From a virus (taxonomy: Duplodnaviria > Caudoviricetes), in the IMG/VR virus record IMGVR_UViG_3300009183_000095, positions 666 to 64,665 of that record: a stretch of DNA of 64,000 bases; one strand, 5' to 3'. The translations under genes and the position numbers were made by a program. The notes under the pieces were generated by a model, which was not told where the DNA came from, ran no database searches, and saw nothing but the letters and a program-made list of their open reading frames with translations. How positions within the stretch are numbered: position 1 is the first letter of the stretch; every line of letters begins with the position of its first letter. Shown piece after piece: positions 1,213 through 30,000 of the stretch.

Positions 1213-2106
1213 TTAAGCCTGAGTCAACATGTACTTGGCCAATTGCTCCCAGTTAGAGTTAGAAGTACGAATCTTGATTGTCTGGATGAGAGTTCGGAGT
1301 GAGATCTCCTTGGTCAACTCTTTGTTAGAACGAATCAAGTTCAATGCATCCCGCTTGAACTGCATAGGCACATTGCCCATGAATTGCTCAGTAGACATGA
1401 TCGTCTCCATTCGCTCGAGCTTCTGATCCAAAGACATCGACAGATCAATACACATCGAACGAGTCTTCAATGCCTGATTCAAATTCTCAGGAGACAAATT
1501 AGAGATGAAGATCACCCCACCCTTGAACTGGAATGAACGGGGCAAGTTAGGATCCCGCATCTCTGCATTCCATGAAATGATACGCTTATCATACGAATCC
1601 AATGCACCCTTCAACAGGTTCAACGCATCTGCATCCTTCAGAATAGAATCACAATCATCAAACACAATCACACTGTTACGGTTTTCATAAAGCAAACGGA
1701 ACAGCGCCCTGGCAGTAGAGAAACCCTTGACAACACTGAAACACTTCTCAGTCATCACCACCGTTCCATCATCGGCTTCTGATAAGATCACCGACATATC
1801 TTTCAGCCCGTTCTTGAGCAAAGACTCATACACCGTATAAGACTTACCCAAGCCTCCCTCACCAGTAATGATGACCGAGGGAGTTTGACGCTTGGCAACC
1901 ATCGTAGTCACGCTATCGACAAACGTAAAACGCTCATTGATAGGAAACTCAATCGATTGCTCTTTCTGCTTCTGTGCAACTATGACCGAGTCTTCGGCAT
2001 GCGATTTGAGCTGGCGCTCAACATAGTACTTAGAACTAGATTTAACAACCAATTTGTTGTTAGCGTAACCATGATACTTACCGTTAATCAATTCAATCTT
2101 AGTCAT
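1213..2106 (-). CDS. P-loop AAA-type ATPase (early gene)
   Basis: Walker A GEGGLGKS, Walker B VIVFDDCD; directly downstream of sigma70 promoters. Confidence 0.8.
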   Translation of the reverse strand: MTKIELINGKYHGYANNKLVVKSSSKYYVERQLKSHAEDSVIVAQKQKEQSIEFPINERFTFVDSVTTMVAKRQTPSVIITGEGGLGKSYTVYESLLKNGLKDMSVILSEADDGTVVMTEKCFSVVKGFSTARALFRLLYENRNSVIVFDDCDSILKDADALNLLKGALDSYDKRIISWNAEMRDPNLPRSFQFKGGVIFISNLSPENLNQALKTRSMCIDLSMSLDQKLERMETIMSTEQFMGNVPMQFKRDALNLIRSNKELTKEISLRTLIQTIKIRTSNSNWEQLAKYMLTQA

Positions 2107-2133
2107 ATCAACCTTTCATCATTTAATGTATCA

Positions 2134-2162
2134 ATTATAGGGAAAGTGGGAAATTAAAGCAA
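2134..2162 (-). promoter_or_regulatory. sigma70-type early promoter
   Basis: TTGCTT-N17-TATAAT on the minus strand. Confidence 0.8.
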
Positions 2163-2209
2163 GCTTTTTCTCCCTTCCTTCTAACCCTCTCTCCCTAACC
2201 AATGAATGA

Positions 2210-2238
2210 ATTATACTGAATGTCGGTAATTAAAGCAA
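2210..2238 (-). promoter_or_regulatory. second, tandem sigma70-type early promoter
   Basis: TTGCTT-N17-TATAAT with the same TTGCTTTAATT 5' block. Confidence 0.8.
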
Positions 2239-2257
2239 CTGATAAAAACCTCAATGA

Positions 2258-2270
2258 AATCAATGAGTTA
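2258..2270 (+). promoter_or_regulatory. putative IHF binding site
   Basis: AATCAATGAGTTA matches WATCAANNNNTTR, about 20 bp upstream of the promoter -35. Confidence 0.45.
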
Positions 2271-2296
2271 CACCTGTATCTCTGTGGCTAATAGAC

Positions 2297-2332
2297 AAAA
2301 AAATAGAGGATGACCAAGTCTCTCCCCTATTT
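2297..2332 (-). terminator. intrinsic terminator of the membrane-protein operon
   Basis: AAATAGGGGA...TCCTCTATTT stem running into a T tract on the minus strand, just after the stop at 2353. Confidence 0.65.
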
Positions 2333-2352
2333 CTCCCTATCTAGACGCTATT

Positions 2353-2895
2353 CTATAGAGGCATCCATAGCCAAATAGCTTGTGACATGAGCAATGCGGC
2401 TAGAGCACCAACAACTAATGATGCATCGTAGAGCTTATTGTTGACTGCCAAGATAGATGCCGTTAACAACACCACCGCTATCTGAAAGAGTGAGCCGGCG
2501 TATGTGTACCAAGGTGAACGTGTCTTGGCTACCGCTCTCTCTGCCTCCAACTTTCGAGCCTTATCCATTAGTTCCTTCTTTCCCTCCCCTGACTGGGGAT
2601 CGGATTCATATCTGGCTATCTTCTTCTCTAATGACTCAATCTTTCTTTTGTCACCCGCTCGTACGGCATCATCCAATGCCATCTCTGCCAATGTTCCTTT
2701 GATAGACTTAGCCTGATAGAATGCCCAGGTGTTGTTAGCATCAATAGTGTTGTTCAATACTTTGGAGGAGTTGCTCCCTCCCATGTAAGTATTGATAGCT
2801 AGTAAGGCGGCAAGCACAGTAATGACCCAGCCGGCTTTGTCCTTGATTAGAGCCTCTCGCTCACTTCTTGATAATGGTTTCTTTTCTTCTGCCAT
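2353..2895 (-). CDS. DUF4337-like multi-pass membrane protein
   Basis: N-terminal TM, WAFYQAKSIK motif, coiled coil, two C-terminal TMs. Confidence 0.7.
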   Translation of the reverse strand: MAEEKKPLSRSEREALIKDKAGWVITVLAALLAINTYMGGSNSSKVLNNTIDANNTWAFYQAKSIKGTLAEMALDDAVRAGDKRKIESLEKKIARYESDPQSGEGKKELMDKARKLEAERAVAKTRSPWYTYAGSLFQIAVVLLTASILAVNNKLYDASLVVGALAALLMSQAIWLWMPL

Positions 2896-2915
2896 GTTGT
2901 ACCTCTTTAGTTAAA

Positions 2916-3446
2916 TCATTTAGCTAGAGGATTGTCTAGCGCTCGTTGAATCTTTCTATCCATCTCTCGCTCTAACGTCTTTGCATTAGCCTCTGATTCT
3001 TTTCTAACTTGCCTTACCTCATCCCGCACCTCTTTAACTGCTTGATCGGCCTCTCTGGCCGATTGCTTGGCGCTTCTTTCAACTGTCTCAGTCACTCCCT
3101 CCAAACGTCTGATATCATTCTTCAGATCGTTTTTAATGTCACGAGTGTAATCGCTGGTCTTTGAGCTGTTTTCTTCAATGACAGCCAGCTTTTTATACAC
3201 CTCTGTTAGATCGGGGGATATGTATTCAGCTATCTTCTTCTTCATGCCCATGTAGTCTTTGTATACCTCAAACGTACCATATAGACCTCCTAGAACAGAT
3301 GATGCAATAGTAAAGGCAACCATCAACTTAGCAGGGGTGAACTCATAGCCACCGATGCTAATGACTGTATCTTTACTAGCGTACTTCTTTGCTGCTGCTT
3401 CTAGTTCGTCGACTTTTGCGTCAACACTTTTAATTTCTTCTGCCAT
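2916..3446 (-). CDS. single-TM coiled-coil protein
   Basis: TM LMVAFTIASSVLGGLYG followed by a long heptad region ending ALDNPLAK. Confidence 0.7.
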   Translation of the reverse strand: MAEEIKSVDAKVDELEAAAKKYASKDTVISIGGYEFTPAKLMVAFTIASSVLGGLYGTFEVYKDYMGMKKKIAEYISPDLTEVYKKLAVIEENSSKTSDYTRDIKNDLKNDIRRLEGVTETVERSAKQSAREADQAVKEVRDEVRQVRKESEANAKTLEREMDRKIQRALDNPLAK

Positions 3447-3447
3447 T

Positions 3448-3792
3448 TTAGTGATCCTTCATTGATCCGATTTTGTTTTTAATAGCCATTCTATCTTCCA
3501 GAATAGCGATGTGTTGACGATTTTCAAAAATTGAGTCACGATTCTTTTGGATTTCTTTTTCTAAGTCTTGGCGTAGTTTTTCGCGGGCTAATTCAGCACC
3601 ACTATTGCTTGCCTGTTTATTGTCTGTTGTTACAACTAAACTCACTTTCTGATTTAGAATGGTTACATCATGTTGTAATGAACCTAATGCATTGATCAGA
3701 TAACCAACTGATCCTAGTAGCAATGGTAAAATTGCAAACAATAACTTCTCTATAAACGCACCTTTTTGATCCTGCTTGTTTTCTTCTGACAT
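3448..3792 (-). CDS. single-TM coiled-coil protein
   Basis: TM LLFAILPLLLGSVGYLI plus coiled coil; GAGG SD. Confidence 0.7.
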   Translation of the reverse strand: MSEENKQDQKGAFIEKLLFAILPLLLGSVGYLINALGSLQHDVTILNQKVSLVVTTDNKQASNSGAELAREKLRQDLEKEIQKNRDSIFENRQHIAILEDRMAIKNKIGSMKDH

Positions 3793-3814
3793 CTTGTTTC
3801 CTCTTTATTATTTG

Positions 3815-4525
3815 TTATCTCCAATATTTGGAGTAGTCTAAATTATTCCAATGGTTATCATTATTTCTATTCCAAAAGTTCTTAATCAGATACCAAGCCA
3901 TCCCAAAGTATCCCATCTTTTTAAATCTTCTACTGTCCTGACCAAAATAATGTTTAATTAATTTGAACTTCTTTACATCATACATTTTTGATAAGAAAAA
4001 GTCTTCACTAGTGCCAAACTTTTCTGAAAATCCGCCCAATCTATCAAACTCACTCTTTCTTGTCAACATGAAAGCTCCAACAGCAAAGGGTACTTTATAC
4101 TTCATGAGATTGTTTATGAGATTAAAGATCATGAACCCTATCTGTGCTCTCATATCTCTATCATAACATTTAATGTTTAATCCAATTAAGTCTAAGTTGT
4201 TTGATTCTATCTCATCAACCGCATCACGAATAACATTAACATCAAAAAAGCGAACATCAGCATCGATGAATAGAATGTATGGAGTAGTTACTAACTCAGC
4301 GCCTCTATTCTTTGCAAAGCTAACTGGGCCCCCATCAATGATTTCTACATTCAATTTACCCTTTGTGATCTTAATAACCTCACGAGTATTATCTGTTGAA
4401 CAGTCAGCAATAATAATTCTGGTACTACCTATCAATTGATTACGAAGATGGGTCAATAGATACGCAATATAATCTTCCTCATTCTTACAAGGAATAACAA
4501 TAGTTATTTTATCACTTAACAGCAT
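3815..4525 (-). CDS. glycosyltransferase family 2
   Basis: IVIPCKNEE, DCSTDNT, FIDAD (DXD), GGFSE...SED motifs. Confidence 0.9.
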   Translation of the reverse strand: MLLSDKITIVIPCKNEEDYIAYLLTHLRNQLIGSTRIIIADCSTDNTREVIKITKGKLNVEIIDGGPVSFAKNRGAELVTTPYILFIDADVRFFDVNVIRDAVDEIESNNLDLIGLNIKCYDRDMRAQIGFMIFNLINNLMKYKVPFAVGAFMLTRKSEFDRLGGFSEKFGTSEDFFLSKMYDVKKFKLIKHYFGQDSRRFKKMGYFGMAWYLIKNFWNRNNDNHWNNLDYSKYWR

Positions 4526-4643
4526 ATGTATTTTTATGCTTAAGTGACTTCTTTAAGGCTTTGAACCACATTCTCTTTTCTTCTTTTTCATCATTAATTA
4601 GAATTGCCTGATACATCTTCTTTATTATCTTTCGTGATTTCAT
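4512..4643 (-). CDS. small basic protein, 43 aa (not in the ORF track)
   Basis: MKSRKIIKKMYQAILINDEKEEKRMWFKALKKSLKHKNTYAVK; fills the gap between its neighbours and overlaps both. Confidence 0.5.
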   Translation of the reverse strand: MKSRKIIKKMYQAILINDEKEEKRMWFKALKKSLKHKNTYAVK

Positions 4644-5388
4644 TATCGTTCTCCCTAGTCCATGTTACTATCTTCCATGTACCATCCTGGTGCTCTACCA
4701 AGGCAGTACAACTCTCAACCCAATCACCATCGTTCATATAAACAACATCATCTATCATCTTAATTTCTGCATGATGAATGTGTCCGCAGATCACCCCATC
4801 ATACCCTCTCTTCTTACAATATGCAGCTAGATTCTTTTCAAACTGAAATATAAAATCTACTGCTTTTTTAACTTGATGTTTAAGAAACTGGCTAAGGCTA
4901 AAGTACCCAAAACCAAAACGGCGACGAATCCAATTATATTTATTGTTGAGAGTAATAATAATGTCATATGCTTTGTCTCCTAAAAAAGATATCCAAGGTG
5001 CCAGTCTAGTAATTCCATCAAACAAATCACCATGTGTAATTAAATAATGCTTCCCGTCTACTCCTATATGCTCAGCTTGATTCTTTATCTCAATAAGCCC
5101 AAATGAAAAGCCATAAGGTATCATTGGTCGTAAAAATTCATCGTGATTGCCTGCAACATATACTACTCTTGTCCCGCGCTTGGCATGTCCAAGTATTCTG
5201 CGTACAACATTAGTATGACTTTGTTTCCATCGCCATTTGTTCTGTTGTATCTTCCAAGCATCAATTATATCACCAACAAGATATAAAGTCTCACAGGTAT
5301 TATTCTTTAGAAAATTATTGAGAGCCTCTGCCTTACAATCTTTAGTACCTAGATGTACATCAGAGATGAATATAGTCTTGTAATGCAT
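4594..5388 (-). CDS. calcineurin-like metallophosphoesterase, PlcP/LpxH2 type (putative phospholipase C)
   Basis: SDVHLG, GDIID, GNHD, HGD, GHIH, NDGDWVES; GNHD rather than the GNRD of true LpxH. Confidence 0.8.
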   Translation of the reverse strand: MHYKTIFISDVHLGTKDCKAEALNNFLKNNTCETLYLVGDIIDAWKIQQNKWRWKQSHTNVVRRILGHAKRGTRVVYVAGNHDEFLRPMIPYGFSFGLIEIKNQAEHIGVDGKHYLITHGDLFDGITRLAPWISFLGDKAYDIIITLNNKYNWIRRRFGFGYFSLSQFLKHQVKKAVDFIFQFEKNLAAYCKKRGYDGVICGHIHHAEIKMIDDVVYMNDGDWVESCTALVEHQDGTWKIVTWTRENDNEITKDNKEDVSGNSN

Positions 5389-6158
5389 TATCTTCCTATG
5401 TATTTTTTAGGTAGTGCTTCTTCTCTTCTTTGTTTCTCATTTTTTGGAAATAAATCAAATCCTAACTGAGGATATTTTCTCATTCTATCTTCTGCAACCA
5501 CTATCATTAAAATAAAAATAAACAATAACGTTACTATGAACCCGCCAATCCACCAAGTCCATACATAAACCTTCTTCATAAATTTAGCGTGTTCAACCTC
5601 TTCACGGTGCTGTCTGTCTATTTGCTTCTTTAACGCAATTGCTTGTCTTGCATTTAGTATATTTGATGTTTCTTGTACTTCAGTCCATAGCGCACCCAAC
5701 TCCTTAGGGCTCTGATATATCATTAACTCGCGGAGATCAATCTCCATTTGCTCTAACTTCTTCTTCATTAGTACTCTTTGTAGAGCACGACTACCTAAGG
5801 AAGTATCACCAGTGTATACTTGATATGACCTTTTTTCTTCTGCCTCAAATATAGCTATGCACTTGGCTTGATTATCAAAGAAAGCTCCTAGTTGCTGTCC
5901 TATCTCAAAGTAAATGTCCCCGGGATCTTTTTTATTTAGATCTTTTACTCTAGCTTTCTCTTCATTAAATTGTTTAATTGCCTCAGGAGGAGGCTTCTTT
6001 CCTTTGGCAGAATAGGCATTATGAAATTGGTTGTCTAGATCTTTAAGAACGTCTTTGACGTCCCCTGCTGCACCCTTTATATCTTTATAAAGTTTACAAC
6101 CAGCTTTAATAGCTGAAACAGCACCATTAGCTAGGGCAAATAAGGTTATTGGATCCAT
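5388..6158 (-). CDS. hypothetical helical protein with C-terminal TM
   Basis: N-terminus MDPITLFALANGAVSAIK, coiled coil, TM VYVWTWWIGGFIVTLLFIFILMIVV; TAATG coupling at both ends. Confidence 0.75.
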   Translation of the reverse strand: MDPITLFALANGAVSAIKAGCKLYKDIKGAAGDVKDVLKDLDNQFHNAYSAKGKKPPPEAIKQFNEEKARVKDLNKKDPGDIYFEIGQQLGAFFDNQAKCIAIFEAEEKRSYQVYTGDTSLGSRALQRVLMKKKLEQMEIDLRELMIYQSPKELGALWTEVQETSNILNARQAIALKKQIDRQHREEVEHAKFMKKVYVWTWWIGGFIVTLLFIFILMIVVAEDRMRKYPQLGFDLFPKNEKQRREEALPKKYIGR

Positions 6159-7834
6159 TACTTGCCTTCATATTGCATCTCCACCATTTCACTGTGCAGT
6201 CTATCACCTGGACCAAATAGTCTTCTTCCTACTCGAGCATTATCTATCACGCGCTGGTTCTTGTATACCTCATATGGTTTATAACTTACTCCATCTGGAA
6301 CAAATACTTTACCATATGCATCAAACCCTGGAGTGAAAGCCATAGCCTGTAGAACTACATTTTGCACCGCGATTTGCTGATCCATAGAAGCAACCTTGCC
6401 CATCTCATTAGCAAGATTCTTTCCTTTTTCTACTGCGTCTTTCTTTGCTGCTTCTGCTCTTCTTTCAGCAATTTCTTGTCTAGCTGATTTTTGAGGCGCT
6501 CCCTTTTCTCCAGCTCCAGCATTAGGTTGAGAGTTCGCTTGTTGATTTTGGTTTTGTGCTGGTGGTCCATCTTTTCTTTCCGCTTGTTGTGGCTGGGGTT
6601 GAGGTCCCCCTGACGATGATGATTGTTGTGGCTGTACTAACTGAACTGGAGCAGCAGGAGCAGCAGAGGAGTTAGTAGTTGTAGTTGTAGGAGTAATAGT
6701 CTTATCAACATTACTATCTCCAGTCTTAGAAACAGAAGTAGATACTGTTCCATCGTTGCCAACCGATGCTGATACGGTAGGTGCAGTTTGTGCTATTACG
6801 CCAGCAGTAGCTACAGTAGAGGCTATGCCCTGCTTTTCAAATACCATCTTTCTAGCATATGCCTCACTATAATTAGGACAATCCCTTGCATACAATCCAT
6901 CTAAACTACATTGCTGGGCTTTGTAAGCTGAGGCATAGTTAGGACATCTAGAATTGTATAATCCATTTAATGAGCATTGTTGATTGAAGTATGCTGTCTC
7001 GTAGCCCAGGCATGTTGTACTGTATAGGGCGTTCTGGCTGCATTGCAGGGAAAGATATGCTGAGGCGTATCCCGGACAACTTGGATCCGATAATGTGTTT
7101 ATCGTACACTGCTGGGTAAAAAAAGCAGCCGCGTACCCCGGACACGTAGCACTAGATAATGGGTTAGATGAACATAACTGCGCCTGGTAAGCAGCAGCGT
7201 AACCAGAGCAGGATGGAGAATATAAAGGATTGGAGTTACATGGATCGGATGTATAGTTCATAGTAAGAGAAGGATTTCTTACTTGTGGACCATAATAGCC
7301 AGCCCAGAATCTATTATCCTTACCCGTAAACGATATAGACATTGCATCTGTTGCTAAAAGACTATACTCATTAGTAAAATTTTGTGTACCAGTCTTTAAC
7401 TCAAACCCATCAGTAGCTCCATTGTAATTGTATGTGTAGGACTCAAGTACACTCTTACCTCTAAGAAGATTTACAGTACCAGCCAATGTGCCTGATTGTT
7501 GACCTGAGTTATTAATTTGCCAAGAATAATTATATCCCTGTATTTTAATACCAGAACCAGAAAGGTCAAGAGCATGTTGAATAGCAAATGCTTCAGCTCC
7601 TATAACCTGTGAAGCTGTACCAGGGGTGTATCCAAATATCAATGTGTTTGTGTTTTCATTGAAAGCAGGACCGGAACCTCCTCCAGAGGTTCCTCCATTT
7701 TGACCAGCTACCGATCCTTTCCATGCTTGAACGGTAGGGTTTAATATGTTCTCTGAAGTTAGAGATTGAGAATGTGCTTTAGGTAACACACAAGCTAAAG
7801 CAACTATGACCAAAAACCAGCTAAGGAATTTCAT
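6158..7834 (-). CDS. secreted Cys-repeat protein
   Basis: Signal peptide (MKFLSWFLVIVALACVLPKAHS), beta-rich domain, six 22-aa Cys repeats, Q/P/S/T-rich linker. Confidence 0.8.
   Translation of the reverse strand: MKFLSWFLVIVALACVLPKAHSQSLTSENILNPTVQAWKGSVAGQNGGTSGGGSGPAFNENTNTLIFGYTPGTASQVIGAEAFAIQHALDLSGSGIKIQGYNYSWQINNSGQQSGTLAGTVNLLRGKSVLESYTYNYNGATDGFELKTGTQNFTNEYSLLATDAMSISFTGKDNRFWAGYYGPQVRNPSLTMNYTSDPCNSNPLYSPSCSGYAAAYQAQLCSSNPLSSATCPGYAAAFFTQQCTINTLSDPSCPGYASAYLSLQCSQNALYSTTCLGYETAYFNQQCSLNGLYNSRCPNYASAYKAQQCSLDGLYARDCPNYSEAYARKMVFEKQGIASTVATAGVIAQTAPTVSASVGNDGTVSTSVSKTGDSNVDKTITPTTTTTNSSAAPAAPVQLVQPQQSSSSGGPQPQPQQAERKDGPPAQNQNQQANSQPNAGAGEKGAPQKSARQEIAERRAEAAKKDAVEKGKNLANEMGKVASMDQQIAVQNVVLQAMAFTPGFDAYGKVFVPDGVSYKPYEVYKNQRVIDNARVGRRLFGPGDRLHSEMVEMQYEGK
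6845..7240 (-). repeat. six tandem 22-aa (66-bp) repeats, C-x9-C-x2-Y-x2-A-[YF]
   Basis: CNSNPLYSPSCSGYAAAYQAQL / CSSNPLSSATCPGYAAAFFTQQ / CTINTLSDPSCPGYASAYLSLQ / CSQNALYSTTCLGYETAYFNQQ / CSLNGLYNSRCPNYASAYKAQQ / CSLDGLYARDCPNYSEAYARK. Confidence 0.9.
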
Positions 7835-8313
7835 TAGTCTTTAGTGCTTTTAATTATCTGAGGTTTACGTAATGGATTTGCTTCCCATAGCTCCTTTGCC
7901 TCAGAACCTATCTTACCATCTATAGGGCAAGGTGTACCAGCATTCATCATAGCAGTAAATACTCTTTCGTCTTGACAAAGAGTGGATACTGCTGCTACTT
8001 TCATTCCCATATCGTATAGGTTCTTAGACAACTTTAATCGCTCGCAATTCATATCACGAGTAGTTGATCCAAAAGACAATCCTAGGATTTGAGTTTGAAC
8101 TGCTCCTGATGCGCCTACCGTGCATAGATCGTTATTAATGCTCGTTATGGAAGGAGCAACTGCGGTAGGAGGTGGAGACTTAACTGTAGTAACGCTATTA
8201 CTACTTGAATCTGTCGTGCTTCTCGAAGTCGAATCAGTGACAATAGGATCTGCTGCTATTGCCAATTGCGAAAACATACCAAAGATAGCCACAACGGCGA
8301 TCTTTTTGTACAT
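7834..8313 (-). CDS. secreted four-Cys protein
   Basis: Signal peptide ending AIA, S/T-rich linker, DLC...NCERLK...LCQD...GTPCP. Confidence 0.8.
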   Translation of the reverse strand: MYKKIAVVAIFGMFSQLAIAADPIVTDSTSRSTTDSSSNSVTTVKSPPPTAVAPSITSINNDLCTVGASGAVQTQILGLSFGSTTRDMNCERLKLSKNLYDMGMKVAAVSTLCQDERVFTAMMNAGTPCPIDGKIGSEAKELWEANPLRKPQIIKSTKD

Positions 8314-8326
8314 TTTTTATTTCCTT

Positions 8327-8557
8327 TTATCTATTAAGCCACATCATTACAAATTTATTTGCTTGTATCTCGTTATCAAAAAAGTGTAGCTTGGTTTGTT
8401 TATTTATTGCGTGGTGCATAATAACAAAAATGGAATCCAAATTTGTCATTGAAGCTTTAATATACCAATCGCCTATTCTGACAGGCTCAACAGACGTCAA
8501 CTCCAACCCATTAAAGTTAGATACTGACGTTACAAATTGTTGTTTTTCTTGGGACAT
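8327..8557 (-). CDS. hypothetical protein
   Basis: 76 aa with strong AGGAGG SD. Confidence 0.65.
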   Translation of the reverse strand: MSQEKQQFVTSVSNFNGLELTSVEPVRIGDWYIKASMTNLDSIFVIMHHAINKQTKLHFFDNEIQANKFVMMWLNR

Positions 8558-8559
8558 AA

Positions 8560-8587
8560 AGCCTCCTCATCTTGTATTTAGGAGGCT
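8560..8587 (-). promoter_or_regulatory. late-promoter-like CCTAAATA inside an RBS-sequestering hairpin
   Basis: Minus strand AGCCTCCT-AAATACAAGATG-AGGAGGCT-TT-ATG: a perfect 8-bp stem whose 3' arm is the SD. Confidence 0.65.
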
Positions 8588-8605
8588 GAGTTGTTTGATA
8601 TGGTA

Positions 8606-9055
8606 TTATATTCCAAATTCTTCAACGTATCGGTAATAGAGGCCAGCCTCTCTTCCGAATGCTTCTATCTCCCAGGGCTCATCCCAATAACTAAGAGATT
8701 TATCGTTGTAAGTCTTGTCATGCCATCTTGTGGAGCGAGCACCACATATTCCATCTGACAACTCCCCTAGTGCAAATTGCTTTAGGTGAACCATCTCATG
8801 GGCAAGATTCTTTAGAAGATCTTCTTTTGTGGTTTTCTTGCAAAGCTGTATTCTAAACTCTTTAGTGGTTCTTGTCTTATCCATATACTCACAATAACCA
8901 GCTGCATCATCTTCAAGCTTATTCTTTAATTCTATTTCAAGATCAACTACTCTAAGGTATTTTTTTGGCATCAATATGGTAGCATAGAACTCAGCAGCTA
9001 TGGCGAGTTCATCTTTAAACTTCTTTGATCTATGACCTTGAACGCTGACTAACAT
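8606..9055 (-). CDS. zincin (HEXXH) metallopeptidase-like protein
   Basis: LAHEMVHLKQF and PWEIEA motifs; likely start at ATG 9055 after AAGGGA. Confidence 0.75.
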   Translation of the reverse strand: MLVSVQGHRSKKFKDELAIAAEFYATILMPKKYLRVVDLEIELKNKLEDDAAGYCEYMDKTRTTKEFRIQLCKKTTKEDLLKNLAHEMVHLKQFALGELSDGICGARSTRWHDKTYNDKSLSYWDEPWEIEAFGREAGLYYRYVEEFGI

Positions 9056-9247
9056 CTCGGTTCCCTTTAGATATCGGTAGTTGAAGGTCCTAGTAAAGTC
9101 CATTTCTCTAGGAGTCTTCCTTTTCTTCCAGGAGTCTCCAGAAAGTTGCTGGCCCTTCGTAGAGTGCAAGAAAAAAGTATATCGCATGAATTATTGTGTG
9201 TATAATTAAAAACGGGATAATCCAAATAGCATAATCAATAGCGCGTC

Positions 9248-10639
9248 TCATTGAAAGTCCTTAAAAACACTTTTATCAATTCGCCTCTCATTATTTATTC
9301 TTTCCCCGGCTTGAGAGGTATCAAAGACCGGCCTATCATCACTGATATTCTGCTGGGCTAGCTGTTCTACATTGAATAATTTCATTCTAGATTTATCTAC
9401 CCCTATAACGAACTTTCTATGAAATGATGGATCAGCATAACGGTTCTTTAACTGTTTAACCATGAATTGCCCTAGATCCTCCAATTCTTCTGAGGATATT
9501 AGCGCAAACATTAGGTCAGCTGTGGCAGGGAGTCCAAACGATTCTGAAGTATCTTCTAGTCCTACATCGGTATTGGAGTAACCCGAGCGAGTAGTCTGAG
9601 TAGCAGAAACAATAGGAACTTTAAATTCTACCGCCAATCCTCTTAACTCTTCAGCAATAGCCTTAATATAACTATAGGAATTAACGCTATTACCAAACTT
9701 CAGTCTAGAGCTTACACAGATATTAAGATAGTCGATATAGATGATATCAGGTTTAAAATTCCGTTTTAGCTTTAGTTCATTGAGTAGATGCCTGAAGTTA
9801 GCAGAACCAGCTGAAGCAGTGGGATACTCTTTAATAATGAGTTTACCAGTAGTTTTCTCTTTGACTCTATCTACCTTTCTCTCATATGCATCTTTAGGAA
9901 GCATCGATAGCATATCGATAGTCTCATTTAGAAGATTGGCATCGATACGCTCAGCAATCTTCTCCTCTGACATCTCTAACGTAATGTATAGTACATTATA
10001 TCCGGATGAGAGATTAGATGCAGCACAATGACACATGAAGAGAGACTTGCCAACCCCAGTACCAGCAAGAGCAATATTAAGGGTCTTAATTGGTAAACCA
10101 CCCTTTGTAATTTTATTGAAATATTCGAGATCAAACTCAACACGTTTTACCTTTGTATGATATGAATCGTACCGCTCTTCAAAGTCATCTAGATAATCAT
10201 GACCTATGCTTGTATCAAACGATACTCCTAGAGCTTCCGAAAGTATTTGTGGAATGCTTCCCTTGGACAGCTTCCCACTCTTATCATCTAGTATGTGAAT
10301 ACTTTCAGTGATAGCGTTAATGACTGCTTTATCTTGACAGAACTTCTCAGTACTATCTACTAGCCATTCTATATCATTATTCTCTTCTTTTAATTCACTT
10401 ACTAGATTTTTTATTTCATGCACGTCTTCATCAGACATACCTGTAATACTATCTGCCTCTATCCTTAACGCTGTAGGAGAAGGAGGCTTATTATATTTTT
10501 CTACGTACTCATTAACTAACTTAAACGTAGCTTTAGTTATTCTATCTCCAAAATACCCTTCCTTAAGAAAGGGGAGGACTTTCCTCAGATATTCCTCGTT
10601 GAATAGGAGATTGTTCAGAATCATCTTCTCTACCATCAC
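9248..10639 (-). CDS. gp41: replicative DNA helicase (T4 gp41)
   Basis: AGTGVGKS, ITLEMSEEKI, IDYLNIC, SATQTTR, SESFGLPATAD, QLKNRY. Confidence 0.97.
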   Translation of the reverse strand: MMVEKMILNNLLFNEEYLRKVLPFLKEGYFGDRITKATFKLVNEYVEKYNKPPSPTALRIEADSITGMSDEDVHEIKNLVSELKEENNDIEWLVDSTEKFCQDKAVINAITESIHILDDKSGKLSKGSIPQILSEALGVSFDTSIGHDYLDDFEERYDSYHTKVKRVEFDLEYFNKITKGGLPIKTLNIALAGTGVGKSLFMCHCAASNLSSGYNVLYITLEMSEEKIAERIDANLLNETIDMLSMLPKDAYERKVDRVKEKTTGKLIIKEYPTASAGSANFRHLLNELKLKRNFKPDIIYIDYLNICVSSRLKFGNSVNSYSYIKAIAEELRGLAVEFKVPIVSATQTTRSGYSNTDVGLEDTSESFGLPATADLMFALISSEELEDLGQFMVKQLKNRYADPSFHRKFVIGVDKSRMKLFNVEQLAQQNISDDRPVFDTSQAGERINNERRIDKSVFKDFQ

Positions 10640-23516: not shown

Positions 23517-24281
23517 TTACGTAATAAGATAACTCCACGGGATTTGTTTAGCATAAGGAATGGGATCAACCATCTTTGCTTTAATAAAATTCTGAATACG
23601 CTCACTACACGAAGGACACTCTCCGCAACTCTCACCTACTGGTGTAGGATTATAGCAGGTCAATGTGAACTCAAGTTTAACATCACCAATCTCTTTAGCA
23701 ATCTCAATCTCTTGATACTTAGACAATAGACTAAAAGGAGCTTCTAGTTTTACTTTATGAGTCCTATTTTGATTAGCAACTGCGTTCATCGAGTCAACAA
23801 ACTTCTGAGTAGTATCCCAGTACCCATACTCATCATGTACTTGCAATCCAGTAAATACATGAGAGGCTTTATTAGCTTCAGCGAAAGAAAAAGCCAGAGA
23901 GTTAAGAATCATATTCCTAAACGGTACATAAGTCTTTGGCTGAGGATCTCCTAACACATCTTTAATAGTAGGCATCGCAACATTAGTACCACCAATATTA
24001 GCAGACATGTTTTTAGCAATTTCACCTAGAATATTAAGATCGAGAATCTTATGCTCAATGCCAAGATACTCACAAGTAGAAGCTGCCATCATCAACTCTC
24101 GTTTCTGCTTCTGCCCATAATCATATGATAGAGCAAACACTCGTTTATTACCATACTTCTTAGCCAAGATATAAGTCATAATGGTACTATCCATACCACC
24201 AGACAATACACTAACTACGTTTTCGTTTGTTTCCGGTAGACTTTGCAGAGCTTGTTGTAGGTTCATATTTTTCTCCATCAT
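23517..24281 (-). CDS. queC: 7-cyano-7-deazaguanine synthase QueC
   Basis: SGGMDST, YDYGQ, YVPFRNMI, TCY...CGECPSC. Confidence 0.95.
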   Translation of the reverse strand: MMEKNMNLQQALQSLPETNENVVSVLSGGMDSTIMTYILAKKYGNKRVFALSYDYGQKQKRELMMAASTCEYLGIEHKILDLNILGEIAKNMSANIGGTNVAMPTIKDVLGDPQPKTYVPFRNMILNSLAFSFAEANKASHVFTGLQVHDEYGYWDTTQKFVDSMNAVANQNRTHKVKLEAPFSLLSKYQEIEIAKEIGDVKLEFTLTCYNPTPVGESCGECPSCSERIQNFIKAKMVDPIPYAKQIPWSYLIT

Positions 24282-24549
24282 CCTTTAATTCTTGTCCGTA
24301 TAATTTAATTTCATATTCTGCTCTATTTACTTCTTTTATTTCGTAAGTATTGTTAAGTGACTCTTCAAACTTCTTCCACGAATTAAGATTGTACCCTCTA
24401 CATGGTATTTCGTAAGAAAACCCATCTGACATCTTAGCCGTCATTATAAAATACGCGTCCCGATCAACTTTAGGTTCTTGTTTTTTATTTGTTGTCGTCG
24501 GCGTGATTATAGGCTTTTTGTTTGAGGGCTTCAACATAGATTGCGGCAT
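24211..24549 (-). CDS. hypothetical protein (start uncertain)
   Basis: Fills the gap between queC and the upstream gene; the true start may be downstream of 24549. Confidence 0.5.
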   Translation of the reverse strand: MPQSMLKPSNKKPIITPTTTNKKQEPKVDRDAYFIMTAKMSDGFSYEIPCRGYNLNSWKKFEESLNNTYEIKEVNRAEYEIKLYGQELKDDGEKYEPTTSSAKSTGNKRKRS

Positions 24550-24700
24550 CCAATAACTCCTCCTGTAAGTGAATAAGCCATTGTAATGTAGATAAGTCGT
24601 CTCTTTCTGTTGTTACACCGTACTTCTTATACCCTGCTTCCATTCTAGTTTTGAGCATGTTGGATACGCGTTGTACATTGGGGTCGATCCATTTTTCCAT
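24485..24700 (-). CDS. small all-alpha NTP pyrophosphohydrolase-like protein (MazG superfamily)
   Basis: G.KKYG...DL...WL.HLQEELLDAAIY with an EExxD metal motif. Confidence 0.55.
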   Translation of the reverse strand: MEKWIDPNVQRVSNMLKTRMEAGYKKYGVTTERDDLSTLQWLIHLQEELLDAAIYVEALKQKAYNHADDNK

Positions 24701-25629
24701 TATTGTCTCGCAGTCTTAGTACACGGTATGTTATGAGATGCAATATTAGCAATACCATCAATTAAGAAAGTATTAGAAGCTCGTATAGGATTAATATCAA
24801 TACCACCACGGCGAGTATATAAACAAGTAACCAATAGTTCGGTAGGCTCTAACATATCATGTAATCGTTTATAGATGCATTCACAAATCTCTTCATGAAA
24901 ATGATTCTCTCGTCTCATAGACACAATATACTGCAATAGAGACTCAGGGGTAACTGTTTTCTTACCTCTAATATGAATATAAACATCGCCCCAGTCCGGC
25001 TGATTAGTTACTCTACAGTTCGATCGCAACGAAGAAGATCTCCACTTATCAGCATAGCGCCCGGAGCTGTCTACTACTTGTAGTATCTCTGGGCTCTCGT
25101 TATAGTGAGAAAAGTCAATCTCTTCTACATTAACAAAATCTTCTAGGGAAACAAAATCACCATTCAATGGTCTTTGAGTATCAAAGTCACCGGTAAATAT
25201 ACTACAATGTACTTTTCCTCCAACTGCTTCACTCATATGTCTTTCAATGGTCTCCTGAACGTTATACAGACCATCCCAGGTCCACATCGTCTTTGCCATA
25301 TTATAAGAGTTTAAATAAAGCTTAACAGACTTTGACTCAACAATATTAGGAGTATCAGAGCTATAAGCGAACTTAAGCCAGCCAGAGACAGGAAAGCCGT
25401 TAACCATAAGAGTGGAAAACTCATAAGCGTTCCATGCATCTGCTCCAACAAACGGAAGAGATTCCTCTTCAATATCATACTGCGTACGATTAAGTTTGCG
25501 CGGTACAGCAACCAAAAGACTTGCATCGACCTCATCAGGTGTGACATATGGCTTAACAATAGACCCATCTCCTGCCTTTCCTAAATGAACAGAAACTAGT
25601 TTATTTAATTCTTCTTGATTATCACTCAT
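24700..25629 (-). CDS. queF: NADPH-dependent preQ0 reductase QueF (bimodular type II)
   Basis: QueF motif VESKSVKLYLNS, catalytic LRSNCRVTNQPDWG, FHEEICE, YTRRGGIDINP. Confidence 0.95.
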   Translation of the reverse strand: MSDNQEELNKLVSVHLGKAGDGSIVKPYVTPDEVDASLLVAVPRKLNRTQYDIEEESLPFVGADAWNAYEFSTLMVNGFPVSGWLKFAYSSDTPNIVESKSVKLYLNSYNMAKTMWTWDGLYNVQETIERHMSEAVGGKVHCSIFTGDFDTQRPLNGDFVSLEDFVNVEEIDFSHYNESPEILQVVDSSGRYADKWRSSSLRSNCRVTNQPDWGDVYIHIRGKKTVTPESLLQYIVSMRRENHFHEEICECIYKRLHDMLEPTELLVTCLYTRRGGIDINPIRASNTFLIDGIANIASHNIPCTKTARQ

Positions 25630-26162
25630 TAGCGTCCTTCCAAAAAATTCATAATTGTTGTAACTCTATCTCTAACAGTACCTTTAACTCGTTGCATAGG
25701 TAATTTTCTTTTTTCTATCTGATGTTCAAATAGATCAGCAATCTTATCTCTAAACTTCGTATCAGTACTTCTCGTTCCATCATCCACAATATCAAATTCA
25801 GGTTCAATATAAAATACATGATCGTACATCGGCCATACTTTATCAAATACTTGATTAACATACTCTAACGTTGGCTGATTAATATGAGCAAGATTATACA
25901 GGTAGTAAGAATAAACTACCCCATCTAATACAGTACGATCAGTAAGCATATCGTTATGAAGAAAGACATTAACAATATGCTCATTCATAATTAAACGCTG
26001 AGTATTATCATTACCTTGCTCATTGATCGGTAACCCATACCCCTTCACCCTGCGTGTTACTTCATCGCAGATAGTATATTTTTCAAATAATTTTTCCGAG
26101 CGCAAAGCATTAAGTAGAGTAGTTTTACCTACCGACTGCGCCCCACTAATTCCAATTCTCAT
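25629..26162 (-). CDS. NadR/AAA_28-like P-loop nucleotide kinase
   Basis: GAQSVGKTTL, DRTVLDG, DDGTR. Confidence 0.8.
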   Translation of the reverse strand: MRIGISGAQSVGKTTLLNALRSEKLFEKYTICDEVTRRVKGYGLPINEQGNDNTQRLIMNEHIVNVFLHNDMLTDRTVLDGVVYSYYLYNLAHINQPTLEYVNQVFDKVWPMYDHVFYIEPEFDIVDDGTRSTDTKFRDKIADLFEHQIEKRKLPMQRVKGTVRDRVTTIMNFLEGR

Positions 26163-26709
26163 TTAATAGTAACCTCGTCTTTATAAAATCAACCCATAGT
26201 TGTATGGATATAAATTTTAGTTTAGTACATAGTGAGTCAAGCGTCTCACCCTCTTCAATGCTGCATGTTTGAATACGTAGAATCTGCCCTGCGTCTACTT
26301 CAGGTACTACACTATGAATTACAGTTCCAGTGGAGGGAAGTTTTAGATCTAAAGCTTTCTGTTGAGGATCTTTACCTTTAAGAGATGGGTAAGTTACTAT
26401 GTCGCCTGGATGTCCGTTGAATATATTGAACTCATTACAAATATGTTCCGGTAATATTCTAAGATATCCGTGAAGAGTAATAATCCAAGAAGCTTCTATT
26501 TCGTACCTAACAAATGACATTATATCATCATGCTTTAACTTTACAACATTGTAAGTTTGCATATCTGGATGCCATTTACTCTCATCCATATTATTTGTAA
26601 GAACTATAGACGGTTGGTATCCTAGGTTATCACTTATACCTACAATCTCCGATCCAGTCTGACTGAATAAAGCTACCCAACCGGCCTTACGTATAACATG
26701 GTTACCCAT
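26146..26709 (-). CDS. PurN-like formyltransferase (candidate DpdN-type preQ1 formyltransferase)
   Basis: LFSQTGS, HGYLRILP, NGHPG, GTVIH.V..EVDAG (catalytic N/H/D retained); likely start 26709. Confidence 0.8.
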   Translation of the reverse strand: MGNHVIRKAGWVALFSQTGSEIVGISDNLGYQPSIVLTNNMDESKWHPDMQTYNVVKLKHDDIMSFVRYEIEASWIITLHGYLRILPEHICNEFNIFNGHPGDIVTYPSLKGKDPQQKALDLKLPSTGTVIHSVVPEVDAGQILRIQTCSIEEGETLDSLCTKLKFISIQLWVDFIKTRLLLNENWN

Positions 26710-27490
26710 TAACAATCGCTCTAAAGCACTCGACGTTATAGGTAATTCTGTTGAGAGTGTCATTATCAACCTCGCTATTAATCATAGTATAAAGTTTCTG
26801 AGAAGGTTTATCCTCTAGACCCTTATCACCATTATATCTTATTCCTTTTAATCCTGCAACTACTGGATTTGACGTATCAATAGAATCAATCCAAGTATAG
26901 CCTCTATATGATTCAAACTCCTGAGGTAGTCCACATCCAAGTAGGTGATGTGGCTTGTCTTGATTAATGATATCATTAGCTAACATATAGTGAATGAGTG
27001 CATCTCGCCCGTACATGTAATGATGAAACTTAGTAGGTAGTTTACCATTGACATCTTCATTTACAAAGAAAGAATAATCAAACGAAATAGCTATCTTATC
27101 AACATAAGATTCAATCTCTTGATAGCACCAAATAATTTCGTCTAAAGTTTTGCCTTGCACCACACCAATACATTGACCCGGTAGATCATGTAGCCAATTC
27201 TTAACGTTAGCAACTGTCTTTTCCGCTCCCTCTAACACATCGGGAATAATAAAAGCAGTAGGATGTAGATATTCGATCCACTTACAGTACTTGTTTTCAT
27301 CAAATGCTTCGCCGAGTTCAAAGATAGAGTTATCTAAAATAATTTCACGACCTTTATTCTTTGCCTTTACAAACAGATCTCGATATTCTTCACTCTCTTC
27401 AAACAAGTGAACTAGGGCATAATCATAATCAGTAACTTCCTGTATGCGAGGAAAAATAGAGATGGGGGCTTCGTGGGCAATCTTAATCAT
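26702..27490 (-). CDS. divergent TGT-fold transglycosylase (DpdA-like)
   Basis: IILDNS, IPDV, GVVQG, HHLLG and SIDTS occur in TGT/DpdA motif order; no C-terminal Zn site; embedded in the que cluster. Confidence 0.7.
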   Translation of the reverse strand: MIKIAHEAPISIFPRIQEVTDYDYALVHLFEESEEYRDLFVKAKNKGREIILDNSIFELGEAFDENKYCKWIEYLHPTAFIIPDVLEGAEKTVANVKNWLHDLPGQCIGVVQGKTLDEIIWCYQEIESYVDKIAISFDYSFFVNEDVNGKLPTKFHHYMYGRDALIHYMLANDIINQDKPHHLLGCGLPQEFESYRGYTWIDSIDTSNPVVAGLKGIRYNGDKGLEDKPSQKLYTMINSEVDNDTLNRITYNVECFRAIVNG

Positions 27491-27881
27491 TAAAATTATA
27501 CTCCTGTTGTTTTCTTACACGTTCACGTTCACGTTTTTGATAGTACTTTGTACCGAGAAATTCCATCTTTTGAATAATCTCGTTTACCTGCTCTTTGGAT
27601 AGCATAACAATTTCAGTTACTCCACCAATTTTTTCTTCAATCCAAAGATTCTTAGGATAGAATGTTTTGAAGGTCTCTTCAACCCCCTTCATCTCATCCA
27701 ATGGGCCAGCAACAGTTTTCATGATTTTAATTTCCCACTTGTCATACTGCTCAGGCTCATACTTGAACCTCTCCGCAGCATCCCAATTGGATGTATGACC
27801 AAACTTATAGAAGTCTATCTGTTTGGTTTCCTTGTTCGTGAACCTTGCAAGATACATCTTGCCTATCTTCTCCGTCATCAT
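27483..27881 (-). CDS. GIY-YIG/T5orf172-like hypothetical protein
   Basis: MYLARF...FYKFGHT...ERF...E pattern; start after GAGG SD. Confidence 0.5.
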   Translation of the reverse strand: MMTEKIGKMYLARFTNKETKQIDFYKFGHTSNWDAAERFKYEPEQYDKWEIKIMKTVAGPLDEMKGVEETFKTFYPKNLWIEEKIGGVTEIVMLSKEQVNEIIQKMEFLGTKYYQKRERERVRKQQEYNFND

Positions 27882-28122
27882 AACTACCTCTCTCACGTTG
27901 TTCAAATTTCTTTTCTTGTATTGTTTTCTCGCCCCAAACACGTCTAGGGTTTGAACATAATAAACATTTAGGATTACCGCAATTCATTGCATGATGTTTA
28001 GCAAACTTATGAGGTTCTTTTACAGGTACTCCAAATTCTTTTGCAATCTTTACCTGTCTTTTTATTTGCACTTCCTCTTGATGGAGACGTTTGCTGTGTT
28101 TTTGTTTATCTTCTTCATGCAT
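27805..28122 (-). CDS. conserved hypothetical protein with Cys/His motif
   Basis: KHHAMNCGNPKCLLCSNPRR; AGGAG SD. Confidence 0.65.
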   Translation of the reverse strand: MHEEDKQKHSKRLHQEEVQIKRQVKIAKEFGVPVKEPHKFAKHHAMNCGNPKCLLCSNPRRVWGEKTIQEKKFEQRERGSYDDGEDRQDVSCKVHEQGNQTDRLL

Positions 28123-28131
28123 ATTTTCTCC

Positions 28132-28419
28132 TTAAAATGTCATTCTAATTAGCCCTATAGTATCAATAGTGGTTAACAGGATGTAGTTAGCCAACATGCC
28201 AAATGATTTCCGAGTATAACTAGCCCAAGCGTACATAGCGCAACCACTAATCCAAACAGGATAAAGAGCCAGTAGGGGAGGATTAGGCACGGTAAGCGCC
28301 ATTGTAATCGAACACCCAATACTAATAGCCCAAGCGAGCAACTCAACAACAAAACGAAGCTTGTTAGAAGTCCAGTCATCTTTTATCCATTCAAGTGTAG
28401 GTCTGAATATATCCAGCAT
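28132..28419 (-). CDS. small three-TM membrane protein
   Basis: Three hydrophobic segments; TAATG coupling. Confidence 0.7.
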   Translation of the reverse strand: MLDIFRPTLEWIKDDWTSNKLRFVVELLAWAISIGCSITMALTVPNPPLLALYPVWISGCAMYAWASYTRKSFGMLANYILLTTIDTIGLIRMTF

Positions 28420-28700
28420 TAGACTTTCTTACCTTCCCCTGCAAGGAAGTAATTGGTTACTTTAGTCATCATAGTGGTTTTGGACTGTACAGCTTGAATT
28501 ATATTGATAAACTTCTGTTTGGTTTCTTTCTTACCTGTAGAAGCTTCAATAGCTTGAATGCAGAGGTTACGGAAATCCTCCACATGCATGACGGTATAGT
28601 TATCGAAGATATTTTTTATCATGTCTTCGCCTATTCCGTCATGTTTGACGCGAGCCTTAGAGCTGGTCTGAGTAGTTGTAATCACGGTAGTTCCTTTCAT
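28419..28700 (-). CDS. hypothetical protein
   Basis: Directly downstream of a sigma70 promoter. Confidence 0.65.
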   Translation of the reverse strand: MKGTTVITTTQTSSKARVKHDGIGEDMIKNIFDNYTVMHVEDFRNLCIQAIEASTGKKETKQKFINIIQAVQSKTTMMTKVTNYFLAGEGKKV

Positions 28701-28711
28701 AATGATGATTC

Positions 28712-28740
28712 ATTATAGTATACTACCGAAATTAAAGCAA
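28712..28740 (-). promoter_or_regulatory. sigma70-type early promoter
   Basis: TTGCTTTAATT...TATAAT, 17-bp spacer; same family as the promoters at 2134 and 2210. Confidence 0.8.
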
Positions 28741-28748
28741 CAGATTTT

Positions 28749-29459: not shown

Positions 29460-30000
29460 TTAGATTCTCTTTCCACTCACGGTGACCTTCTCTATATGCC
29501 ATATTGCTAATAGTCTCTCTTACCTCTACTCTATAGCACCAAAGGCGTTCTGCTTCACTAGGTCCCCACATATCTGGAATATATACTCCATTAACGTATC
29601 GGTAGAGCATATCAGAAAGACCTTCACAACCAAGCTTTGGAAGAATAGTTAACTTAGCCATCTTTTTATCTTGCAAAAGTTTAAACGTTTCTAACTCTGG
29701 GTCATCTTCAGCTACTAATAAAGTATGATCAAACTGATCTTCTAAAATTCCTTTTAGTTCTTTTAGACCGCCATAATCAGCAGCCCAGTTGCGTACATCA
29801 AGATCATCAGTACCAAAAAAGAATCTCATAGAAAAACTATAACCATGAATTAAGTTACAATGGGAGTCTGCTCTCCATTGACGATATGCACATGGAAATG
29901 CATTGTGATATTCTTTAGTACTCGTATACTTGTATTGTACTGGGTGACGTAAATACTGTCTATGGTCGCTTACTACTGGTGTTCCAAAATCATCTGACAT
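29452..30000 (-). CDS. queD: QueD / PTPS-family synthase (atypical His ligands)
   Basis: HCNLIHGYS, DYGGLK, FDHTLL, VEVRET; position in the cluster. Confidence 0.85.
   Translation of the reverse strand: MSDDFGTPVVSDHRQYLRHPVQYKYTSTKEYHNAFPCAYRQWRADSHCNLIHGYSFSMRFFFGTDDLDVRNWAADYGGLKELKGILEDQFDHTLLVAEDDPELETFKLLQDKKMAKLTILPKLGCEGLSDMLYRYVNGVYIPDMWGPSEAERLWCYRVEVRETISNMAYREGHREWKENLID

Follow-up and report, generated by a model that had tools for sequence, protein, structure and literature searches.

A PlcP-family phosphoesterase paired with a short glycosyltransferase in a T4-like phage: a candidate phospholipid-to-glycolipid pathway

What use could a T4-like phage have for a metallophosphoesterase gene followed by a glycosyltransferase gene? 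The question is raised by a 64,000-nt stretch of viral DNA, positions 666 to 64,665 of the IMG/VR virus record IMGVR_UViG_3300009183_000095 (64,665 b, CheckV completeness 36), which is referred to here as the window and is a fragment of a T4-like myovirus. An earlier note on this DNA had singled out a metallophosphoesterase with GNHD and NDGDWVES motifs adjoining a family 2 glycosyltransferase (GT2), and both open reading frames (ORFs) are indeed present:

4594..5388, minus strand, PlcP-family metallophosphoesterase (predicted phospholipase C), 264 amino acids (aa)
4526..4593, minus strand, spacer between esterase and GT2 genes, 68 nt
3815..4525, minus strand, short GT2 of GT-A fold (Glycos_transf_2, PF00535), 236 aa

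In the reading that we favour, with a probability of about 0.68, the two genes are the phage counterpart of a bacterial pathway, the PlcP route from phospholipid to glycolipid, and the GT2 would be a non-orthologous replacement of the family 4 glycosyltransferase (GT4) Agt in that pathway.

The phosphoesterase: PlcP versus LpxH

The esterase matches the Metallophos family (PF00149) with E 1e-11 (46.1 bits against a cut-off of 21.5) and carries the motifs VAGNHDEF, in which GNHD spans residues 80-83, and MNDGDWVES (residues 218-226). No transmembrane (TM) segment or signal peptide was found in it by the simple hydropathy scan with which such segments were called throughout. Public annotation, that of JGI included, files its relatives under LpxH. 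This identity was rejected, given that the protein scores below both LpxH equivalog cut-offs (NF003743, 50.7 bits against 134; TIGR01854, 37.8 against 190.35), has GNHD and falls in a separate clade. It is only 20-21% identical to LpxH, the nearest LpxH sequence in the PDB matches its N-terminal half alone (E 7.6e-5), and its GNHD stands where the LpxH proteins of Escherichia coli and of genome G006 have GNRD. All LpxH are said to carry Arg in place of that His (PMC5016852). The metal ligands of LpxH listed in the accessible part of the same paper align with D10, H12, D40, N81, H119, H203 and H205 of the esterase. These seven residues, together with H82 of GNHD, are invariant across 38 family members.

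Sinorhizobium meliloti has a single homologue in a chromosome-like record (48.8% identity, E 3e-69), encoded near N-acyl-homoserine lactone synthase and LuxR genes, which we take to be SMc00171, the first PlcP. A 270-aa homologue in Pseudomonas aeruginosa is 55.3% identical to the esterase (E 5e-79), and its gene overlaps a downstream GT4 gene. Both references were taken from PLSDB, which includes some chromosomal records: CP090106.1, a 3,719,350-b S. meliloti replicon filed there as 'plasmid pSymB', looks like a chromosome, and several P. aeruginosa 'plasmids' of 96-167 kb carry chromosomal-looking genes. We take the P. aeruginosa locus to be PA3219-PA3218 from its gene context and the published description; mutants and enzyme assays have shown PA3219 to be PlcP and PA3218 to be Agt1, which makes glucosyl-diacylglycerol and did so even without PlcP from the small native pool of diacylglycerol (PMC8528852). 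The field criterion for PlcP is a BLASTP E<1e-40 against the PlcP of Phaeobacter MED193 (PMC4796936, where glycolipid formation in a plcP deletion of MED193 served as complementation test), and the esterase reaches that level with the P. aeruginosa and S. meliloti homologues as reference in place of MED193 PlcP.

A likelihood tree of 57 rows, obtained by a quick search without bootstraps and with several long branches flagged, separates the LpxH proteins of E. coli, G006 and G265 from the remainder by a branch of length 5 with 100% support in the Shimodaira-Hasegawa-like approximate likelihood ratio test. Together with 13 phage rows and a paralogue from G006, the esterase makes up a clade (99%) that lies within a group of rows to which the S. 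meliloti and P. aeruginosa proteins belong. The phylogeny therefore puts the esterase inside the PlcP group and away from the three LpxH, and membership of LpxG is unlikely, because the esterase groups so closely with PlcP. Genomes G006 and G265 encode a true LpxH (290 and 334 bits) as well as an esterase paralogue (40 and 57 bits), and four other genomes have a weakly scoring protein of the esterase type without a true LpxH. The earlier note's choice of PlcP over LpxH is thus upheld by LpxH model scores, the His in GNHD, identities and tree alike. By its sequence, the esterase belongs to the PlcP family, and its dinuclear metal site is intact.

Its structure model has a predicted local distance difference test (pLDDT) score of 84.8, with only 54-86 in the region of an insertion between the catalytic motifs, modelled as helices at residues 120-194. 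LpxH takes all of the first 23 places among the PDB entries matched to the model, at Z 17.7-19.4 and with about 190-210 residues in the alignment, against a Z of at most 15.7 and about 155-160 aligned residues for esterases consisting of the core only. Given that the LpxH entries align over a greater length and score clearly above the core-only esterases, the model indicates that the esterase shares an LpxH-like helical lid. Such a lid is a feature of the lipid-binding LpxH/LpxH2 group, and in LpxH it holds acyl chains. The esterase is therefore like LpxH in superfamily, overall fold and the helical insertion between metal-binding motifs, but unlike LpxH it is kept as a second gene in genomes that already have a true LpxH.

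Partner genes in phages and bacteria

A scan of IMG/VR for the esterase gave at least 599 pattern matches and at least 592 confirmed relatives, on contigs of many sizes that include a 359,563-b record rated 100% complete and encoding a diverged gp41-like helicase. The best 80 of these relatives, 80-87% identical to the window esterase, served as phage loci. In 49 of them the next gene after the esterase encodes this GT2 and in 29 a GT4; two have neither, and none has both. The phage GT4, a protein of about 335 aa, shows the Pfam domains of its family and shares 38.8% identity over 338 aa (E 6e-81) with the Agt1-type protein of P. aeruginosa, so that an Agt-type enzyme occupies in these 29 sister loci the position held by the GT2 in the window; within the window itself, no GT4 homologue was found (best E 0.56). 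On a 99-row esterase tree, the GT2 or GT4 label needs 11 changes, at least three of them forced by well-supported branches, compared with a mean of 23.8 for shuffled labels. The partner has thus changed repeatedly, and this between esterases that are more than 80% identical.

The search was also made from the GT2 side, where 79 viral loci became 78 after one weak match was dropped. The esterase gene lies directly upstream of the GT2 gene in 72 of them, directly downstream in four and 1.7 kb upstream in one, and the last locus has no room for it; among loci with enough flanking DNA, it is thus within 3 kb in 77 out of 77. In the four pairs with swapped order, the GT2 is 38-61% and the esterase 36-45% identical to that of the window. 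The gap between the two genes ranges from -34 to +175 nt in other phage loci, with an overlap of a few bases in about half. Both the unbroken linkage of the GT2 to the esterase and the Agt-like GT4 found in its place in sister phages strengthen the lipid-remodelling idea of the earlier note.

These results also bear on the possibility that there is no pathway at all: the esterase alone would scavenge lipid phosphate, or weaken the membrane for the timing of lysis, and a co-inherited GT2 would glycosylate a phage protein, a small molecule or DNA. The two loci with neither glycosyltransferase fit this account, as do two more distant phages. In Pelagibacter phage Mosig (MT647606.1, 6894-8729), a 49.8% identical homologue, annotated as putative UDP-2,3-diacylglucosamine hydrolase, is encoded about 150 bp from a divergent gene annotated 'putative phosphate ABC transporter', and in Synechococcus phage S-SRM01 a 39.7% identical homologue is found among photosynthesis genes; neither has an adjacent glycosyltransferase. 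Fold and Atlas searches with the GT2 name no acceptor either. However, the GT2-esterase link persists when the GT2 is only 38-65% identical and when gene order is swapped, the GT2 alternates strictly with an Agt-type GT4, the esterase and glycosyltransferase genes frequently overlap, and bacterial plcP operons likewise add a diacylglycerol consumer, agt or dagK. We therefore consider the absence of a shared pathway improbable.

Bacterial genomes provide the comparison. Of 401 Pseudomonadota genomes sampled, 156 have an esterase homologue (E<=1e-10), in nearly all cases a single one, and the 30 best bacterial homologues were examined through 88 neighbouring ORFs. Their neighbours include GT4 in 14 loci, diacylglycerol kinase in four, PhoU in one and a PstS-like binding protein in one. 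A GT2 neighbour was found in none of the 30, tblastn included, and none of the glycosyltransferases beside these plcP genes resembles the phage GT2. As the earlier note had supposed, the bacterial partner is thus usually a GT4, and the phage pairing with a GT2 is therefore unusual. A partner of GT-A fold does occur in bacteria, where in Pannonibacter a family 21 glycosyltransferase (GT21) gene follows a distant PlcP-like gene. Neighbourhoods with GT4, diacylglycerol kinase and phosphate genes match published plcP contexts (PMC4796936, PMC13691135), and it has been argued that pairing plcP with a diacylglycerol consumer prevents diacylglycerol from building up (PMC13691135).

Some related loci deserve mention in their own right. 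In Mitsuaria sp. 7, the PlcP homologue is encoded beside polyphosphate kinase and Ppx. In genome G073 its neighbours are a GT4 and an acyltransferase with two domains, Acetyltransf_5 and Acyltransf_2, presumably of the ornithine-lipid synthase type. A 12-kb record, MT836169.1 ('UNVERIFIED: Bacteriophage sp.'), encodes an esterase 44% identical to that of the window but was dropped as a phage example, as it looks bacterial and Bacteroidales-like: its genes are those for tyrosyl-tRNA synthetase, PlcP-like esterase, a Glyco_trans_1_3 glycosyltransferase and polyphosphate kinase, and the esterase-glycosyltransferase pair matches Parabacteroides distasonis. Among the phages, the 359,563-b jumbo record has, after its esterase-GT2 pair, genes for an Fe/Mn superoxide dismutase and a LysM-GH19 lysin, for NifU and for two IscA-like proteins of Fe-S assembly.

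The glycosyltransferase and the reading of the pair

The window GT2 matches PF00535 with E 6e-18 (65.8 bits against a cut-off of 23.3), and all families that it matches are GT-A; an identity with Agt, which is GT4 and GT-B, was therefore rejected. D88 and D90 of its DxD motif and D175 are invariant in 56 sequences, down to 29% identity, and the enzyme accordingly looks active as far as its sequence can tell. The structure model (pLDDT 95.7) has a GT-A fold. No TM segment was found by the hydropathy scan; the last 41 residues include 11 W/Y/F, 8 K/R and 3 D/E, an aromatic and basic tail that may serve as a membrane-interface anchor. Two further identities are disfavoured: the protein scores 60.9 bits against 182 for TIGR04283 ('arsenosugar biosynthesis glycosyltransferase'), and it lacks the C-terminal TM helices of GtrB/DPM1-type enzymes, with no GtrA or GtrC among the scanned neighbours. 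Its score of 26.9 bits for PF13506 (GT21), slightly over the cut-off of 21.7, is a weak match.

The GT2 is close to phage-restricted. Its nearest ESM Atlas clusters are 100% viral, the best match in the 401 Pseudomonadota genomes is 33% identical, and only 19 of those genomes reach E<=1e-8. The distant bacterial relatives (25-33% identical) are short and TIGR04283-like. A VTT/DedA-domain membrane protein is encoded directly after the GT2 in six of the ten distant loci examined (genomes G149, G305, G160, G311, G109 and G275), with LssY_C fused in five. This association of a short bacterial GT2 with VTT/DedA is an uncharacterised conserved pair that likely has a role in membrane lipids.

Which acceptor the phage GT2 uses is the point on which a different account of the pair would turn. 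If it were a GtrB/DPM1-type polyprenyl-phosphate GT2, and the esterase acted on a nucleotide-linked or pyrophosphate-linked lipid, the two enzymes and their neighbours might alter lipopolysaccharide or another surface glycan and so block superinfection or mask receptors. The top PHROG of the GT2, 'GtrB-like O-antigen conversion' (E 6.3e-8), agrees with such an envelope disguise, although it covers residues 6-161, the catalytic domain only. The best structural match, the membrane-associated mannosyltransferase PcManGT (6yv7, Z 21.3), agrees as well, but is nearly tied with many unrelated GT2 at Z 18-21. Distant bacterial relatives adjoin DedA/VTT proteins, the pair lies within a block of membrane and signal-peptide proteins, and a change of the host surface has been suggested as the role of pelagimyophage glycosyltransferases (PMC7029224). 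On the other hand, the GT2 has no TM helices and no GtrA-like or GtrC-like partner was seen in the block, the esterase belongs to the PlcP and not the LpxH clade, an Agt-type GT4 replaces the GT2 in 29 of 80 loci, and the P. aeruginosa relative of that GT4 uses diacylglycerol. The flanking membrane genes are, moreover, much more loosely linked to the esterase, in 7 to 25 of the 80 phage loci. We judge this account, too, to be unlikely.

The phospholipid-to-glycolipid pathway thus remains the preferred reading, and it suggests the following course of events. After infection, the esterase would act on the inner membrane from its cytoplasmic side and cleave host phosphatidylglycerol (PG), phosphatidylethanolamine (PE) or phosphatidylcholine to diacylglycerol and a phosphorylated head group, the phosphate of which could go into new nucleotides and DNA of the phage. 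Its aromatic and basic C-terminal helices would hold the GT2 at the membrane, where it would move a sugar from a nucleotide-sugar onto diacylglycerol. GT2 enzymes invert, and the product would therefore be a beta-glycosyl-diacylglycerol. This glycosylation would remove diacylglycerol, which disturbs the bilayer, so that the membrane could stay intact until lysis. A tie to phosphate stress is suggested by phage Mosig, through the putative phosphate ABC transporter gene that adjoins its homologue. A bolder version, which we regard as tentative and rather doubtful, is that the GT2 stands for a new class among the diacylglycerol glycosyltransferases: a soluble, inverting enzyme of about 236 aa, anchored by its tail, that arose or spread in phages, repeatedly displaced Agt and makes a beta-glycolipid foreign to the host.

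Several observations weigh against the pathway. The fold of the GT2 is generic GT-A, with Z 19-21 to enzymes that use very different acceptors, and Foldseek, VIA-align and ESM Atlas searches returned generic GT2 neighbours only, with no indication of the acceptor; its nominal best fold match is, as noted, a polyprenyl-phosphate-type mannosyltransferase, and the top PHROG, too, is of the GtrB type. A BLASTP comparison with the GT21 encoded beside a PlcP-like gene in Pannonibacter gave E 20, that is, no similarity, and the distant bacterial relatives adjoin DedA/VTT-LssY_C membrane proteins rather than plcP. The locus counts are counts of contigs and not of independent events, because the sets of 80 esterase and 78 GT2 loci overlap in part and contain near-identical contigs. 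A promoter and terminator scan of positions 2000-9400 was uninformative (20 promoter-like sites against 21.9 expected, and 6 terminator-like sites against 3.9), and neither kind of signal exceeds chance, in the spacer between the two genes either. None of the listed public sequencing runs containing the stretch is RNA, and neither pstS nor phoH was seen in the annotated parts of the window.

Surroundings, comparisons and significance

The earlier note had described an operon of membrane and secreted proteins, and a co-directional, tightly packed block with TM-containing and signal-type proteins does surround the pair. Besides the two enzymes it contains three genes upstream of the esterase and three small genes (2353..3792, minus strand) on the 3' side of the GT2:

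7834..8313, minus strand, p159, 159 aa, N-terminal signal-like segment, phrog_20531
6158..7834, minus strand, p558, 558 aa, N-terminal signal-like segment, Cys repeats
5388..6158, minus strand, p256, 256 aa, one C-terminal TM segment, stop overlapping the esterase start (TAATG)
3448-3792, minus strand, p114, one N-terminal TM segment
within 2353..3792, minus strand, p176, coiled-coil-like, no TM segment by hydropathy scan
2353-2895, minus strand, DUF4337 protein, three hydrophobic segments

Overlapping TAATG is found not only at the junction of p256 with the esterase but also at p558/p256 and p159/p558. Neither p256 nor p558 matches any Pfam, NCBIfam or PHROG family. Homologues of p256 and of the DUF4337 protein lie no more than 6 kb from the esterase in 25 of the 80 phage loci each, and homologues of p114, p558, p176 and p159 were found in 13, 9, 9 and 7 loci, respectively. 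The repeats of p558 (window 6815-7210, minus strand) are six tandem units of about 22 aa with two Cys each, in the pattern ...C-[PSL]-[GN]-Y-x-x-A-Y...Q-C, followed by a stretch of low complexity, rich in S/T/P/Q, and then by a charged C-terminal region. The DUF4337 protein is 83% identical to one in the 359,563-b phage record (L060:3036-3581), which otherwise shares little with the window. Freshwater phages that are not related to each other seem to exchange a small group of membrane genes.

The replication genes of the window include a T4-type gp41 helicase, a UvsX-like recombinase, DNA polymerase, clamp, clamp loaders and RegA, and gp46/47, gp55, UvsW, UvsY, major head protein, portal, sheath, tube and terminase are encoded as well. 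A gene set of the 7-deazaguanine (queuosine/archaeosine) type is located at 23517-31292 on the minus strand (QueC-like, two GTP cyclohydrolases, QueD-like, QueE-like and a phosphoribosyltransferase) and suggests modified DNA bases in this phage; it is followed by a peptide deformylase gene at 31273-31896. Megablast of window positions 3000-9000 against GenBank phages gave zero matches. Parts of the stretch are contained in five public DNA runs from four studies; in the top two, 0.43-0.44 of the sampled words are present, and one of these two runs carries the label freshwater metagenome.

This context makes it very improbable that the pair has no phage function, being either mis-assembled or mis-binned cellular DNA or a decaying passenger. 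In favour of a cellular origin, JGI names the homologues LpxH, and one contig (L004) of a metagenome-assembled genome (MAG) carries the pair beside pyrG and kdsA. Against it, the window pair is flanked by T4-type replication genes on a single contig, close relatives are found on at least 592 viral contigs including the record rated 100% complete, both ORFs are intact with invariant catalytic residues, and pyrG and kdsA were seen in 0 of 80 esterase and 0 of 78 GT2 phage loci. The MAG itself (G005; contigs C80 and C104; loci L004, L233, L234 and L238) comprises 0.8 Mb, has a low G+C content and is labelled Gammaproteobacteria. Its esterase and GT2 are 82% and 73% identical to those of the window and lie between TilS/NifU-like genes and pyrG-kdsA in DNA of uniform G+C content (~30%), with the esterase split across two contig ends. 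Among the genomes searched, the MAG lineage was rejected as the ancestral source, given that the GT2 is present in only 1 of 41 related genomes; three of the 40 others have the esterase only, 47-50% identical. We think it more likely that the MAG pair was transferred from phage to cell, or is an assembly chimera, than that it is the source, and it could also be a hint to the host.

Among known systems, the closest are the bacterial PlcP-Agt operons, such as P. aeruginosa PA3219-PA3218, those of SAR11 HTCC7211 and Phaeobacter MED193, and the plcP-agt-dagK genes of Burkholderia cenocepacia. The phage pair shares with them the esterase family, the metal ligands and the order of esterase before glycosyltransferase, often overlapping, and 29 of 80 related phage loci have a GT4 39% identical to Agt1. 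In contrast to these operons, the carriers are lytic-type T4-like and jumbo phages and not cells, and the window and 49 of the 80 loci pair the esterase with a 236-aa GT2 of GT-A fold instead of a GT4. GT4 enzymes have a GT-B fold and are retaining. Diacylglycerol glycosyltransferases of GT-A fold are known in the rhizobial Pgt of GT21 and the cyanobacterial MgdA, a GT2, and the phage enzyme resembles them in its GT-A fold with DxD. Unlike the Pannonibacter GT21, which is 381 aa long and shows no pairwise similarity to it, the phage GT2 has 236 aa and no TM segments.

A second parallel is found in pstS, phoH and phoA of cyanophages and pelagiphages, likewise host-derived genes in T4-like aquatic phages that plausibly ease phosphorus demand, and the Mosig homologue adjoins a putative phosphate ABC transporter gene. 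These genes differ from the pair described here, which would form a two-enzyme pathway acting on the cell's own membrane lipids rather than serving uptake.

In titles and abstracts, with subscription papers and supplements outside the search, we found no phage-encoded PlcP. Of the papers listed, those on viral auxiliary metabolic genes (AMGs) contained no plcP, those on lipid remodelling or renovation combined with AMG, phosphorus or bacteriophage concerned hosts only, and those on phage diacylglycerol glycosyltransferases under phosphate limitation did not describe an esterase-glycosyltransferase pair. In the accessible parts of the viral literature, 'lpxH' was found only as an entry in AMG lists from Lake Baikal and an offshore marine site. 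The accessible part of a pelagimyophage survey (PMC7029224) mentions neither LpxH nor the pair, and the announcement of phage Mosig mentions neither lipid nor phosphate. What would be new is that phages carry a pathway of the PlcP kind and that a GT2 is the partner in it; the PlcP pathway itself is known.

Phosphorus is limiting in lakes as well as in the oceans, and a phage with a large genome needs much of it in relation to the small cell of its host. The known answers of phages to this limitation are uptake genes such as pstS. If our reading is correct, the pair represents a strategy of internal recycling, in which host phospholipids are dismantled and replaced by sugar lipids, and it would be the first case in a bacterial virus, within the literature searched, of membrane-lipid replacement directed by the virus. 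Giant algal viruses rebuild the host membrane with sphingolipids. It would follow, too, that these genes are widely mis-annotated in AMG surveys, which file them under 'LpxH / lipopolysaccharide biosynthesis'. With relatives on at least 592 viral contigs the module is abundant, and metagenomes hold thousands of near-identical proteins; it could therefore affect how lipid-based markers of phosphorus stress are read in freshwater. The GT2 is, in addition, a compact candidate enzyme for glycolipid synthesis. Should it prove to belong to a new class, the phage would mine lipid phosphorus and rebuild the membrane with a virus-specific lipid, which could change the susceptibility of the cell to other phages or to grazers.

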